NCBI RefSeq assembly: GCF_003334385.1
Contig: NZ_QOWN01000072.1
Direction: 5' to 3' (one strand)
Source: Escherichia coli
Lineage (GTDB): Bacteria; Pseudomonadota; Gammaproteobacteria; Enterobacterales; Enterobacteriaceae
Length of the DNA: 7,350 bases
Shown here in pieces: positions 434 through 4,085 of this stretch. Numbering within the stretch: position 1 is the stretch's first letter; every line of letters begins with the position of its first letter. Position numbers and translations under genes: made by a program. Under the pieces are notes generated by a model. The model was not told the origin of the DNA. It worked only from the letters and a program-made list of their open reading frames with translations, and searched no databases.

Positions 434-618
434 TGCTGTTCTCCGATAATACCAAGTTCAAGAAGGGCAATTCTGGAAAGTATGGAATTATCATTGAGAA
501 GATAAGGTTCATATTTTCTCATCTTAATGGCATCTTCCGTAAACTCCCGGTTACTGAGCAGAACACCAATATCAAAACAACCTTCAGACGTATTAACGTT
601 TGGTAATAACGTTTCCAT
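430..618 (-). CDS. small hypothetical protein (62 aa)
   Basis: ORF track 430..618 (-). ATG at 618..616 preceded by GAGGA (plus 626-630 complement) at about 7 nt spacing. Amino-acid composition is more protein-like than the overlapping plus-strand ORFs 415..606 and 527..730. No family recognised. Confidence 0.5.
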   Translation of the reverse strand: METLLPNVNTSEGCFDIGVLLSNREFTEDAIKMRKYEPYLLNDNSILSRIALLELGIIGEQQ

Positions 619-636
619 TATCGCGTCCTCAACAAT

Positions 637-795
637 GAATTTTGTGATGCGGTGCCTGGTGCCTCCAGGTGACGTTAACCAGTTAACAATTAACGCCGGA
701 ATACAGAAGGATGCCCGTTACGCCCCGTAAAAGACCACTTTACGGTTTTAACTGTTCCGCGTGCGCATAGCCGCATTCACCGCATCACAAAATTC
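637..795. repeat. 18-bp perfect inverted repeat (arms 637-654 and 778-795) bounding a 123-bp segment rich in nested dyads
   Basis: Left arm gaattttgtgatgcggtg (637-654) is the exact reverse complement of right arm caccgcatcacaaaattc (778-795). The interior holds CCTGG-N5-CCAGG (656-670), three TTAAC repeats (675-694) and a CCGTAAA-N7-TTTACGG hairpin (724-744) followed by TTTTAA. Confidence 0.8.
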
Positions 796-1094
796 ACTTT
801 AAAAAGGGTGGCAGAGCAGTCACGGAGTAGAACTGATGCCACCAAATACTACACATGGGTATTGTGGCGGGGCTGTCACTTAAGCGTATGGTCAACCTGA
901 CGACCCGGTGCATTTTCTGGAGCAATGGAGGAAGCCCCAGCCATACTTACCGCCGCGCCATTTCGCGGACTGCCACAACCGGAAGTGCACGGTCGAAGAA
1001 ATTTAACGACAAGCCTTATATGCAAAGGAATCTCGCCGTGCGCTTTCGTGTTGTGTGCCTGCTTTTAACCACGTCAGGCGAGGTGGTTTCCGTC

Positions 1095-1123
1095 ATTCCC
1101 CAATAACAGGAAATCTGTATAAT
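1095..1123 (+). promoter_or_regulatory. candidate sigma70 promoter with extended -10 (TGTATAAT) for the rightward 1157/1322 genes
   Basis: TGTATAAT at 1116-1123, about 34 nt upstream of the ATG at 1157. No convincing -35 (attccc at 1095-1100). Sequence pattern only. Confidence 0.3.
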
Positions 1124-1156
1124 CTGGATATCCCCAACAACAGGAAGGTGTTTTAT

Positions 1157-1315
1157 ATGGTGGTTCAAAAGAATTGTTCAGGTACTGGTAAGCCTGCGGA
1201 CAGGGCGGACATTCCGAATACCAGGAAACATATACCTGAGAAAAACATTCGACCAAAACCATCTCCAGCTCCTTCAGAGGAGAGGGGGAACAGCAACAAT
1301 CAAACAAGCAGGTGA
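1157..1315 (+). CDS. small hydrophilic ORF (52 aa), possible leader or small protein upstream of the membrane-protein gene
   Basis: ATG at 1157 with AGGAAGG SD (1142-1148) at 8-nt spacing, directly downstream of the TGTATAAT element. Translation MVVQKNCSGTGKPADRADIPNTRKHIPEKNIRPKPSPAPSEERGNSNNQTSR is low complexity. Its stop lies 6 nt before the 1322 start. Confidence 0.3.
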   Translation: MVVQKNCSGTGKPADRADIPNTRKHIPEKNIRPKPSPAPSEERGNSNNQTSR

Positions 1316-1321
1316 TGATAT

Positions 1322-1768
1322 ATGGACCGGGATGATATTCTTGACAGGGTTTTATATGGTTATTTTCTTGAACAACTATTCTCTGTAGCGACTGGTCGTC
1401 TCGATAAACTTTTCTCAGTGGTGAGTATTATCCTCGGTTCATCTGTCATTGGTGGATTTATTCCTGAAGTTTCTGGAGTTCTCATTGTTGTGATAGCAAC
1501 CGTTCAAACGATTTACGGATTCGGACAAAAGTCAGGTAACGCAATGAGAAAATCCGCAGAATATCTGCAGCTTTATGATGATGCAGAAAAATATTCCGAT
1601 TCGGAATTGAAAATGCAGTTAAAGCTCCTGGAAAAAACAGATGATAATATTTGGTCGTCGCTTAAAGATATCGCAATCTTAAAAACCCAGATCAAAATAG
1701 GAATCTCCGTAGAACAACAAGAGAAACTGTCTGCAAAATCCAAATTGATGCGATTCCTTTGTGGTTAG
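1322..1768 (+). CDS. membrane protein with two predicted TM helices; SieB-like superinfection-exclusion protein by position and topology
   Basis: ORF track 1322..1768 (148 aa). Hydrophobic hairpin LFSVVSIILGSSVIGGFIPEVSGVLIVVIATVQTIYGF followed by a charged, coiled C-terminus. Transcribed opposite to the neighbouring early genes, as sieB is in Rac. AGGTGA lies 10 nt upstream of the ATG. Family assignment is not verified. Confidence 0.6.
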   Translation: MDRDDILDRVLYGYFLEQLFSVATGRLDKLFSVVSIILGSSVIGGFIPEVSGVLIVVIATVQTIYGFGQKSGNAMRKSAEYLQLYDDAEKYSDSELKMQLKLLEKTDDNIWSSLKDIAILKTQIKIGISVEQQEKLSAKSKLMRFLCG

Positions 1769-1866: not shown

Positions 1867-2100
1867 TCAGTCAGAGTTTCTTGCTAACCAGCGACGCGCG
1901 CCAGCTTCCGTTTTAAACGTTTTGCTTCTGGTATACGTCATCGCGGTAAACGTGCCGTCCAGGTTGGGGAATACTCCACATACCAGAGATTCGCTGTTGC
2001 CAAGATCGATAGTATCCATGTTGACCTCATTTCCCCTTAACGCCGGGGTAGCGGAACAAAAACCTGCTGCATAGTTATTAAAGTTGAACCCTGCCGTCAT
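1867..2100 (-). CDS. hypothetical protein (77 aa), first gene downstream of the pL-like promoter
   Basis: ORF track 1867..2100 (-). ATG at 2100..2098 with GAGG about 9 nt upstream. Translation MTAGFNFNNYAAGFCSATPALRGNEVNMDTIDLGNSESLVCGVFPNLDGTFTAMTYTRSKTFKTEAGARRWLARNSD. Not arginine-rich like lambda N; no family recognised. Confidence 0.55.
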   Translation of the reverse strand: MTAGFNFNNYAAGFCSATPALRGNEVNMDTIDLGNSESLVCGVFPNLDGTFTAMTYTRSKTFKTEAGARRWLARNSD

Positions 2101-2196: not shown

Positions 2197-2238
2197 ACAA
2201 TAGCACTGCTATTTTATTCTGTAAATAGTAATGCTATT
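2197..2238 (-). promoter_or_regulatory. OL/pL-like unit: two operator palindromes (ATAGCA-N-TGCTAT type) overlapping a leftward promoter
   Basis: Site A aatagcactgctatt (2199-2213) is a perfect 15-bp palindrome. Site B aatagtaatgctatt (2224-2238) has one mismatch. Centres are 25 bp apart. On the minus strand, -35 TTTACA (plus 2225-2220), a 17-nt spacer and -10 TATTGT (plus 2202-2197) overlap the sites. Same half-sites and geometry as the OR region. Confidence 0.45.
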
Positions 2239-2791: not shown

Positions 2792-3292
2792 TTAGGCGCG
2801 ACGACCTTTTTGCGCCTCTAGCCACCGCGCAACGGTTTCTTCAATTGATTCTTTTTTCTCCTTCATTTCCTTAAGCATTTTCTCTTTGTCTTCTTTTGGG
2901 AAAGCCCTGAACGTCTGGATCAAATCTCGCTCTATAGGTTCTATATTAAACGGAAGTTCGTTTTCCGATTGTTCCATCTCTGCGGGTAAAGCGACAACAT
3001 TATCCTGCTGCAGTTCTTGGGGGTACATCCTTACAATTCGTAACAAGTCTGCCATATCTGGTCTAATTGACTCAGGCGGAACTTGTAGCAACCCAGCGAA
3101 CTTGATAACAGCCTCTAGATTTAAAGGTGTCTGACCATTTAGATAATGGCTTACTGCCCCTTGTGTCGAAAAACCCAGAATTTCTGCCGCACGCTCTTGG
3201 GTTAACCCAAGTTGAGTTTTTTTCGTCGTCCAGATTTCTTTCAGTCTCTGGGCGGCTTGCAGGTCGATCTCTGACAGGGGTTTTCTTTTCAT
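2792..3292 (-). CDS. paaR: HTH (XRE/Cro-CI family) transcriptional repressor, 166 aa; candidate prophage immunity repressor and regulator of the toxin-antitoxin operon (PaaR/RacR-like)
   Basis: ORF track 2792..3292 (-). N-terminal HTH LGLTQERAAEILGFSTQGAVSHYLNG. No LexA/S24 peptidase-like C-terminus. Divergent from the ydaS/ydaT pair across an operator-containing spacer. Stop lies 17 nt before the antitoxin start. Confidence 0.85.
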   Translation of the reverse strand: MKRKPLSEIDLQAAQRLKEIWTTKKTQLGLTQERAAEILGFSTQGAVSHYLNGQTPLNLEAVIKFAGLLQVPPESIRPDMADLLRIVRMYPQELQQDNVVALPAEMEQSENELPFNIEPIERDLIQTFRAFPKEDKEKMLKEMKEKKESIEETVARWLEAQKGRRA

Positions 3293-3399
3293 ACCTTCAA
3301 TTCTAATAAGATTATTAATCTCTTTGAAATAGCGGTGCTATTTACCTTTAAAAATAACAATGCTATTAATATTCATGGTCACATAACATGAGGTGAACA
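3293..3399. promoter_or_regulatory. OR-like divergent promoter-operator region between the repressor and ydaS
   Basis: Operator 1 aatagcggtgctatt (3328-3342) and operator 2 aataacaatgctatt (3353-3367), centres 25 bp apart. Rightward pR-like promoter: -35 TTTACC (3341-3346), 17-nt spacer, -10 TATTAA (3364-3369). The leftward repressor promoter could not be placed; GAAGG abuts the repressor ATG, so the mRNA may be short-leadered. Confidence 0.5.
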
Positions 3400-3663
3400 A
3401 TGAATCTTGGAGAATATTTGCATCATTCCCGTATAACCCAGAAAGATTTTGCTGAAATTGTTGGGGTAACCCAAGGGATGGTAAGCCATGTTATTACTGG
3501 ACGGGCGAAACTTACGGGGGGGAAAGTTTTACGCTGGTGTGAAGCAACAGGGTGGGTAGTGACCCCGCACGAGATTGATAGCAGTACTTACCCCAACCCA
3601 ACCGATGGCATACCTGTTGACTATCAGGCTAACACACAACCCACGCTGGGAGTTGATTCATGA
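3400..3663 (+). CDS. ydaS: Cro-like HTH protein YdaS (87 aa)
   Basis: ORF track 3400..3663. Motif GVTQGMVSHVITGRAKLTGGKVLRWCEATGWVV matches YdaS/Cro-like proteins paired with YdaT in Rac-type prophages. GAGGTG SD at 3390-3395. Stop overlaps the ydaT start (ATGA). Confidence 0.8.
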   Translation: MNLGEYLHHSRITQKDFAEIVGVTQGMVSHVITGRAKLTGGKVLRWCEATGWVVTPHEIDSSTYPNPTDGIPVDYQANTQPTLGVDS

Positions 3664-4085
3664 AAATCAAGCATGAACACATCCGCATGGCGATGAATGT
3701 CTGGGCGCATCCGGACGGCGAAAAAGTACCGGCTGCGAAAATTACCAAAGCGTATTTCGAGCTGGGAATGACGTTCCCGGAACTGTATGACGACAGCCAT
3801 CCGGAAGCCCTGGCCCGTAATACCCAGAAAATTTTCCGCTGGGTGGAGAAGGACACCCCTGATGCTGTTGAAAAAATTCAGGCGCTGTTACCGGCGATCG
3901 AAAAGGCGATGCCGCCTTTGCTGGTGGCCCGTATGCGCAGTCACAGTTCTGAATATTACCGGGAGATCGTCGAACGACGGGATCGGCTGGTGAAAGATGT
4001 GGATGATTTTGTCGCAGCGGCGATCGCCTGGGGCACCCTGACTAACAGTGGTGGTCAGCCTGGTAATGCTGTTGTTGTGCATTGA
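3660..4085 (+). CDS. ydaT: YdaT-family protein (141 aa), the toxic / CII-equivalent partner of YdaS
   Basis: ORF track 3660..4085. Starts MKIKHEHI and is 141 aa, matching my recollection of E. coli Rac YdaT. GGGAG SD 8 nt upstream. A Chi octamer GCTGGTGG lies at 3920-3927. Confidence 0.85.
   Translation: MKIKHEHIRMAMNVWAHPDGEKVPAAKITKAYFELGMTFPELYDDSHPEALARNTQKIFRWVEKDTPDAVEKIQALLPAIEKAMPPLLVARMRSHSSEYYREIVERRDRLVKDVDDFVAAAIAWGTLTNSGGQPGNAVVVH
3920..3927 (+). other. Chi octamer GCTGGTGG (single copy, inside ydaT)
   Basis: Exact plus-strand match to 5'-GCTGGTGG-3' at 3920-3927. No reverse-complement copy was found in the window. Confidence 0.5.

Follow-up and report, generated by a model that had tools for sequence, protein, structure and literature searches.

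The window analyzed here, a 7,350-bp stretch of Escherichia coli DNA that is 100% identical to a prophage of E. coli JNEC-KY176 (NZ_AP045172), covers the immunity region of a lambdoid prophage of the Rac/Qin type. Its leftward operon is of the dicBF type, with the order pL, leader, ydfA, DicF, dicB, and ydfD; we assign it to this type, as in the Qin prophage of K-12, because DicF, dicB, and a DUF1482 (ydfD-like) gene lie on the minus strand to the left of ydfA. We found that the transcript of this operon opens with a conserved, folded leader RNA (positions 2192 to 2025, minus strand). The 77-codon open reading frame (ORF) that an earlier description of this region (here, the original prediction) took as the first gene is the known 50-amino-acid (aa) YdfA read together with a short leader ORF that happens to be in frame. 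Furthermore, a boxA of the rRNA operon (rrn) type follows ydfA. The reading we favor, and regard as fairly probable, is an N-independent dicBF-type operon whose transcription is secured by RNA signals in cis and by host factors.

The operon starts at a promoter (2197 to 2238, minus strand) identified by a consensus scan and its operator pattern. It is sigma-70-like, with a −35 element TTTACA (2225 to 2220), a 17-nucleotide (nt) spacer, and a TG-extended −10 element TATTGT (2202 to 2197). Two copies of the 15-bp palindrome AATAGCANTGCTATT lie over it (2199 to 2213 and 2224 to 2238) and two more in the repressor/cro intergenic region (3328 to 3342 and 3353 to 3367), each pair spaced 25 bp center to center; the four copies compare with 0.28 expected by chance. 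Because this operator recurs at both places, the promoter is a genuine, repressor-controlled analog of pL, in agreement with the original prediction of a pL-like promoter before the gene.

The leader is ~168 nt long, begins at about +1 of the pL transcript, and takes in codons 1 to 27 of the 77-aa ORF. It scored 186 bits with our covariance model R1, as the single copy in the window. The original prediction had described a 95-nt leader; the leader is really ~170 nt and, rather than featureless, a conserved structured RNA with a 5′ and a 3′ domain. In phages Evi and vB_EcoS-640R1, the stretch from ~2030 to 2190 is kept at 97 to 98% identity, where the operators ahead of it and the 118-aa first gene behind it are unrelated. 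The leader stands in front of ydfA in phage Tritos, and in the K-12 prophage Rac it recurs at 87% identity, unannotated, between racR and ydaG. Conservation starts at the expected transcript start and stops just short of the Shine-Dalgarno (SD) sequence of the next gene, whichever gene that is.

We detected the leader in 4,050 of 5,426 complete E. coli genomes, with up to seven copies in each, and it was unannotated throughout among the matches listed. An exact-pattern scan of IMG/VR contigs and other genomes, using an invariant 13-mer plus GAGG, yielded copies outside the window also in Pectobacterium, Prodigiosinella, Superficieibacter, Symbiopectobacterium, and Arsenophonus (many). A promoter-like motif (at least 8 of 12 positions) preceded 105 of the 126 unique copies, with a −10 element that nearly always ended 33 to 40 nt ahead of the apical loop described below. 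As this distance is near constant despite unrelated promoter sequences, the leader is a 5′-terminal RNA. Model R1 found the leader once per phage locus and on the pL side in each case, with two copies only in Arsenophonus loci that carry tandem prophage remnants. When the whole window was searched with cmscan against Rfam 15 (E ≤ 1), nothing overlapped the leader, and only DicF and a subthreshold STnc100 match appeared elsewhere. Our literature search, including one on the invariant 13-mer, found no paper describing it. As far as the tools and literature searched show, the leader appears to be a new, undescribed feature. AgvB/AsxR-type anti-small RNAs and the Pas small RNAs (sRNAs) were considered as relatives and set aside; they are located in late regions and are unrelated.

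The 5′ domain is formed by P1, a three-tier hairpin (P1a/P1b/P1c; 2185 to 2128, minus strand) defined by independent minimum free energy (MFE) folds and compensatory changes, with the near-invariant apical loop CAAUACNNCGAGUUA at 2161 to 2147. When 14 copies from several genera were folded singly, 11 gave this hairpin with differing stem sequences (e.g., GCUGAG/CUCAGC, CAUCAGG/CUUGAUG, GCAAAG/CUUUGC, and GGCAAA/UUUGCC), and 14 pairs in helices 1 to 3 carry compensatory changes. Alignments show that P1 is followed by a near-invariant single-stranded core, UAAGUAGCCAGCCYGAGGCRUAHGAACAUGAMGGCA (2127 to 2092, minus strand). The core holds an invariant 3-bp hairpin, P2 (GCC at 2121 to 2119 with GGC at 2111 to 2109), an SD-like GAGG (2113 to 2110), and the AUG of the upstream ORF (2100 to 2098). 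The 3′ domain (2094 to 2033, minus strand), defined by covariation, comprises P3, the conserved sequences GCAGCAGGUU and GUUCCGC, and a candidate pseudoknot. P3 is a variable hairpin closed by 2094 to 2092 and 2071 to 2069, with a switch between AU and GC in eight sequences. Directly upstream of the first gene's SD sequence, the helices P4 (2053 to 2050 with 2044 to 2041) and P4′ (2048 to 2045 with 2036 to 2033), with the loop GGCGUUAA, have 4 bp each and can coexist only as an H-type pseudoknot. In the alignment, 96% of P4 cells and 95% of P4′ cells are paired, and the compensatory variants include CGGCG/CGCCG, GCCG/CGGC, and GCC/GGC.

For statistical comparison, we aligned 28 full-length copies with MAFFT under a hand-drawn structure. 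Pairing held in 90.8% of the cells, and 18 of 32 pairs had changed on both sides, compared with 5.9 ± 1.7 pairs after column shuffling (0 of 500 shuffles reached the observed value) and 3 to 6 pairs when the 3′ partners were slid by 1 to 3 columns. In a larger set of 80 copies aligned with the covariance model, an alignment that leans towards the model, 20 of 28 pairs and 201 cells had changed on both sides. The MFE of the leader alone was no better than that of shuffled sequences (z = +0.5), and the case for the structure therefore rests on covariation and not on energy. The leader is a real folded RNA.

The P3 position evidently tolerates large inserts, as a full-length leader in Pectobacterium polonicum (locus L035, 8747 to 9024) has an insertion of ~110 nt within P3. 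A search of the window for cis or trans targets complementary to the invariant loops found none. By eye, the 3′ domain resembles the type I-E CRISPR repeat, probably by chance. We also rejected coding by the 5′ domain through a minus-strand ORF at 2206 to 2105 (ending SSQPEA*). It is open in some variants and places the four variable core positions in one codon phase; in ApPE4-type copies, the frame has a stop and no start, and indels shift it.

The 77-codon ORF that the leader's AUG opens in the window (2100 to 1867, minus strand, ATG start) is real, but the conserved protein within it comprises only the last 50 residues, so that the first gene of the original prediction was only partly right. 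Pfam DUF1391 (PF07151; E = 1e−26; model positions 1 to 48 of 48) matched residues 29 to 76 only. In the identical sequence NZ_AP045172, the coding sequence called by the Prokaryotic Genome Annotation Pipeline (PGAP) for RefSeq is 50 aa long and starts at the ATG at window position 2019, which has its own SD sequence, GAGG (2028 to 2025), 5 nt upstream. The gene is the ydfA-type gene at 2019 to 1867 (minus strand; Pfam; PGAP WP_087893412.1), already known as an uncharacterized prophage ORF, and the 77-codon ORF is the leader's 27-codon upstream ORF fused to it in frame in this variant. The N terminus is not arginine rich in either form, as originally stated for the longer one: one Arg occurs among the first 27 residues (MTAGFNFNNYAAGFCSATPALRGNEVN), and the 50-aa form runs from MDTIDLGNSES to WLARNSD. 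Curated, NCBI-named DUF1391 members have 50 to 51 aa, and the 77- to 86-aa forms are mostly unnamed automatic calls; in our reading, gene callers that give such proteins translate a leader RNA.

It might be argued that the 77-aa ORF is the true gene and that YdfA has an N-terminal extension with a function. No stop interrupts the frame, a plausible SD sequence stands 9 nt upstream, and phage annotations include the extension, as does the 70-aa profile phrog_751 (only PHROGs of unknown function were matched). Weighing against our delimitation of the gene, in ~70 of ~150 copies the upstream ORF is still in frame with ydfA, among them two leader variants several indels apart, and for this reason an N-terminally extended YdfA isoform may exist. 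However, the internal Met is the start not only in PGAP but also of the Pfam domain and of all distant homologs, and the K-12 YdfA and YdaF entries are listed at 51 aa. In Evi, 640R1, and Rac, the 27 “codons” also stand before unrelated genes; a stop breaks them in Evi, 1-nt indels shift their frame in relatives, and their nucleotides covary as RNA helices. We therefore consider a functional extension unlikely and retain the 50-aa gene preceded by a leader RNA.

In relatives, the leader's AUG opens ORFs of 6, 7, 9, 12, 18, 20, 22, 23, 25, or more than 47 codons or a fusion with ydfA. The frame is not kept: TGA follows after 20 codons in Evi, a 1-nt deletion gives a stop after 18 codons in Rac-type copies, other lineages stop after 6 to 12 codons, and single-base indels in a U-run toggle the frame. 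In every lineage, 9 nt separate the SD-like purine run from the AUG. These features bear on one explanation of the leader, namely, a translational or attenuation device. Access to the SD-like GAGG would be gated by how P1/P2 folds, perhaps in answer to a ligand or factor, and translation of the short ORF would couple ribosomes to polymerase, block Rho termination, and pass ribosomes to the first gene. That GAGG-N9-AUG-A(C/A)G-GC is invariant across genera and the peptide is not speaks for such a device, as does a copy (L036) that loses the P2 pairing but strengthens the purine run to GAGGAG. The upstream-ORF stop often falls within the GGCGUUAAGGGG loop, 17 to 20 nt ahead of the next start, and in other copies it overlaps the next SD sequence (TAAGGA in L018) or just precedes boxA (Arsenophonus), or the ORF fuses with ydfA. 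In addition, the 5′ end of the leader is C/A rich and G poor, like Rho loading sites. Nevertheless, an ORF of about this length arises from any AUG by chance, the ORF of several lineages is only 6 to 7 codons long and stops within P3, a long way from the next gene, and translation and the ligand are both hypothetical. We regard the attenuation device as possible but doubtful.

The absence of a boxA/boxB-like nut site from the leader was borne out, as no boxA within three mismatches occurs in 2025 to 2192. Profile searches of the 77-aa ORF in Pfam, PHROGs, and NCBIfam returned no N family. The searches proposed with the original prediction, by profile and structure prediction, thus led to DUF1391 and a beta3-alpha AlphaFold 2 (AF2) model. 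A tblastn search with lambda N and two N-like proteins of Arsenophonus found nothing in the window or in E. coli-type relatives. The suggestion that the operon does not use lambda-N-type antitermination thus holds wherever testable (no N homolog, no arginine-rich motif, and no leader boxB), but its reasoning was incomplete: the ORF was misdelimited, the leader is a folded RNA at the position of nutL and putL, and a perfect boxA lies after the gene, outside the stretch first examined.

Some relatives do carry N. Within 30 nt behind the 5′ domain, Arsenophonus prophages have a canonical nut site (boxA CGCUCUUUAACA, boxB UCGCUGAAAAAGCGA, and boxC GGUGUGUG) and an N-like gene of 106 aa with the arginine-rich motif NAKSRRRAKQMAFWDRKRAKYEA. 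Two other Arsenophonus copies have a 5′ domain that directly abuts a gene, the stop TAA of the upstream ORF overlapping that gene's SD sequence. Since it occurs either before nut and N or directly before a gene, the 5′ domain is, by this comparison of sequences, an autonomous module. Among the sampled copies, the full-length ones have the 3′ domain, no nut, and no N homolog, and a few Arsenophonus copies have neither the 3′ domain nor nut plus N. The 3′ domain and nut plus N thus appear to behave as alternatives, which, as an argument from distribution only, fits a put-like role of the 3′ domain. The Arsenophonus loci (L014, 99 to 255 and 2786 to 2947; L013, L016, and L032) contain many 5′-domain copies, each with its own nut site and N-like gene. 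Their boxB sequences are of two types, UCGCUGAAAAAGCGA and a longer GCUCUGAAUAAGC...AGAGC hairpin, and the tandem 5′-domain copies are adjacent prophage remnants.

Put RNAs provide a second explanation of the leader. The leader, and especially its 3′ domain, might be a put-like, cis-acting processive antiterminator RNA that binds the elongating polymerase, replaces nut plus N, and lets pL transcription pass the DicF terminator and Rho sites. Its position immediately after the pL start is that of putL (PMC9378689), it is a structured RNA with invariant loops, and the operon is without N yet has terminators ahead of its distal genes. The 3′ domain and nut plus N are mutually exclusive in our sample, apart from the few Arsenophonus copies with neither. 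Against these points, model R1 gave no match in the HK022 immunity region at E ≤ 10, there is, unlike with put, no second copy after pR, and the occurrence of the 5′ domain right before a gene or a nut site indicates a role independent of replacing N. Antitermination activity of the leader is itself extrapolated from comparison. Short resemblances to put seen by eye (GAACGGC and GGCRGUGGUCA) were judged to be chance and are not taken as homology. In our view, a put-like function is a tentative possibility and rather improbable.

The boxA after ydfA, TGCTCTTTAACAA (1792 to 1780, minus strand), perfectly matches the gammaproteobacterial consensus GYTCTTTAANA (Baniulyte et al., bioRxiv 10.1101/091223), with the core GCTCTTTAACA at 1791 to 1781 and the critical C4 present. 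Its chance expectation is 0.03 per window (5 of 200 shuffles). It lies on the transcribed strand, 75 nt past the ydfA stop and behind a hairpin, CCGGA...UUCGG (1816 to 1795), at the pL-proximal edge of a ~740-bp insertion (~1053 to 1792) relative to phage Tritos. The insertion brings in a convergent 148-aa ORF of unknown function (1322 to 1768, plus strand; phrog_6315; PGAP hypothetical protein WP_000373333.1) that occupies the slot of sieB in Rac and lambda. This ORF had no NCBIfam match, and the cassette was not found in the phage collection searched. Past boxA, the pL transcript is antisense or untranslated for ~1.2 kb. The same boxA occurs at the same relative position in seven loci, the window included, with three different downstream sequences; in L092 (boxA at ~8352), the convergent ORF behind it is another one, of 185 aa. 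Cassettes that enter pL operons in antisense orientation may thus carry an anti-Rho signal of their own. A boxA-sequestering helix with UUAAAGAGU (~1852 to 1844), predicted by RNAfold in the window, at first looked linked to the presence of boxA but is absent from the other boxA-bearing variants and was discarded as a conserved feature.

Nus complexes nucleated by boxA protect long untranslated transcripts from Rho, namely, those of rRNA operons and CRISPR arrays (PMC7665894). Because such complexes shield this type of transcript elsewhere, we infer that the boxA in the window has an anti-Rho function that is independent of N and dependent on host factors. Accordingly, with an rrn-type boxA behind ydfA, Nus-factor-dependent antitermination without N is likely rather than excluded.

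Alternatively, this boxA and its flanking hairpin could be a nutL located after the first gene, as nutR follows cro, with N encoded outside the window, in which case the operon would use N after all. The perfect boxA has hairpins on both sides: the CCGGA/UUCGG stem upstream and, ~10 nt downstream, AUUCCU-AACCACAA-AGGAAU. The downstream hairpin, however, has an 8-nt loop that is not GNRA-like and is replaced by unrelated sequence in L089 and L092, and none of the ORFs from pL to recE is N-like, either in the window or in its relatives. The boxA, moreover, has the full rrn form, for which host factors suffice. An N-dependent nutL at this site is very unlikely, and we continue with an N-independent operon.

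In that reading, transcription would begin at the repressor-controlled pL-like promoter, the leader RNA would be its first product, and the 50-aa YdfA (DUF1391) would be the first real gene. Past ydfA, the transcript would have to cross the antisense cassette, >1 kb of untranslated RNA, and the DicF terminator to reach dicB, ydfD, and recE. boxA would recruit NusB/NusE with NusA, NusG, and SuhB, making RNA polymerase Rho resistant as in rRNA operons and CRISPR arrays, and the leader RNA would set up elongation and/or early translation coupling.

Several points weigh against this account. boxA is absent from most relatives (Tritos, Evi, and Rac) and is not essential to the operon type; for this reason, we see it as an accessory of the cassette and not as a general solution for such operons. 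Complexes on rrn-type boxA counter Rho but not strong intrinsic terminators such as that of DicF. The leader is single per phage, without a copy in the rightward operon, and it coexists with nut and N in Arsenophonus. Qin of K-12 presumably lacks the leader, with a dicA-ydfA gap that we take to be only ~84 bp, yet its dicBF operon is still expressed from a foreign promoter. Any effect of boxA or the leader on elongation is, furthermore, a proposal from sequence. The single leader copy, its coexistence with nut and N, the patchy boxA, and the presumed absence from Qin therefore argue against an obligatory antiterminator. The leader may act in one of three ways: as a put-like antiterminator, as a coupling device of the upstream-ORF/anti-Rho kind, or as a riboswitch-like gate. 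That it represents a new class of cis-acting regulatory RNA for Rac/Qin early leftward transcription, either a non-put N-independent antiterminator or a riboswitch-like gate on a coupling upstream ORF, is a realistic though minority expectation on our part. If this is true, host physiology would control toxic prophage genes (dicB, DicF, kilR, and recET) through the leader in about three-quarters of E. coli strains.

To our knowledge, it has never been explained how Rac/Qin-type prophages without N read past the DicF terminator and untranslated stretches to dicB, kilR, recET, and xis/int or how these toxic genes are kept silent by Rho. For these questions, the leader and the rrn-type boxA of the cassette provide two concrete, mutable elements. 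The leader matters more than the protein here: it is a covarying, unannotated RNA made from +1 of the main early promoter, at the position of the antitermination signals of lambda and HK022.

YdfA is not an antiterminator. DUF1391 has ~200 representatives at 50% clustering, most of them small stand-alone proteins, and the AF2 model of YdfA (predicted local distance difference test score, 79) has a beta-beta-beta-alpha, AP2-like shape, a predicted fold only. In one polyvalent protein (P0181), the domain occurs together with DarA_N (“defence against restriction A,” associated with antirestriction), and the DarA_N motif was seen by eye in P0177, P0188, and P0193. These proteins and P0233, which has two DUF1391 domains, have 440 to 935 aa. 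As the same domain is embedded in DarA_N polyvalent proteins, YdfA is most likely an early host-directed effector or one that binds nucleic acid or host proteins. The “different early function” suggested originally is thus plausible, with the modeled AP2-like beta3-alpha shape and the DarA_N fusion as the only leads. PADLOC gave no defense-family match for YdfA, the convergent 148-aa ORF, or the 118-aa protein of Evi. The label “head decoration protein D” given to ydfA in some phages stems from a 19-residue similarity (E of ~0.1 to 0.3) and is spurious.

The remaining features of the window agree with an immunity region. A helix-turn-helix repressor gene lies at 3292 to 2792 (minus strand); with 28.7 bits against the NCBIfam DicA equivalog cutoff of 101, its product is not a DicA equivalog. 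A RelB antitoxin/RelE-ParE toxin pair (2774 to 2293, minus strand) is inserted between the repressor gene and pL, the slot of rexAB in lambda, and a strong intrinsic terminator (2278 to 2261) stands at its end, just upstream of pL. On the plus strand, a Cro-like gene (3400 to 3663) and a YdaT/CII-like gene (3660 to 4085) are followed by replication genes. In the leftward operon, the DicF sRNA with its intrinsic terminator (857 to 806, minus strand; Rfam RF00039; 62 bits; gathering score, 48; E = 3.9e−12) is located within the long untranslated part, ahead of dicB (618 to 430, minus strand; PGAP; NCBIfam NF049927, 111 bits against a cutoff of 100) and the ydfD-like DUF1482 gene (433 to 245, minus strand; PGAP). 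The ~460 nt between the convergent cassette and DicF (858 to 1320, minus strand) contain no convincing ORF and may hold further RNA elements or processing sites; the segment from ~1052 to 860 is conserved with phage Tritos. The DicF-dicB spacer (586 to 808, minus strand) has a full-length, subthreshold match to STnc100 (36.8 bits; gathering score, 47), a family connected with PasD prophage sRNAs in a 2026 preprint.

Among known systems, lambda nutL/N shares the operon position of the leader, and Arsenophonus relatives carry boxA-boxB-boxC and an N gene after the common 5′ domain. The window differs in having neither boxB nor N and in a boxA that lies after the first gene and follows the rrn consensus rather than lambda's weaker CGCUCUUA. 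The putL/putR sites of HK022 likewise include a folded RNA immediately behind the pL start, and HK022 too is a lambdoid phage without an N-type antiterminator (PMC9378689), and the 3′ domain of the leader is similar in size to put. In contrast to put, whose sites are paired after both pL and pR, the leader has no sequence or structure match to it, is present in a single pL-side copy, is twice as long, and has a conserved SD-AUG; it is known here from its sequence. Compared with the rrn-type boxA of rRNA operons, CRISPR arrays, and suhB, the boxA in the window has the exact consensus, lies on the transcribed strand, and stands at the entry to a long untranslated, Rho-exposed stretch, but it belongs to a phage early operon, where it borders a moron in antisense orientation, and Nus-factor binding and the effect on Rho are predicted.

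In the Qin dicBF operon of K-12 (ydfA-ydfB-ydfC-dicF-dicB-ydfD), ydfA encodes a promoter-proximal small protein of unknown function and precedes a long untranslated region holding dicF; the promoter is under repression by a DicA/CI-like protein, which has a Cro-like partner (PMC5069750). The window shares this repression scheme and the DUF1391 first gene, and behind a long untranslated stretch it has the same series of DicF, dicB, and a ydfD-like gene. It differs from Qin in lacking ydfB and ydfC, with the boxA-preceded convergent 148-aa cassette instead (as judged by comparison with Tritos), in its ~168-nt structured leader before ydfA and its RelBE module after the repressor gene, and in a repressor that is not a DicA equivalog. 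The leftward operon of Rac (racR-ydaG-ydaF-sieB-kilR) likewise has a promoter-proximal small protein of unknown function, YdaF (PMC11014345). There, ydaG and, behind it, ydaF come after the leader, the upstream ORF runs for 18 codons up to the pseudoknot-loop UAA, boxA is absent, and kilR takes the place of dicF/dicB. In common with the window, Rac has the leader at 87% identity, a DUF1391 gene (ydaF), a convergent gene, and a YdaS/YdaT-type rightward operon.

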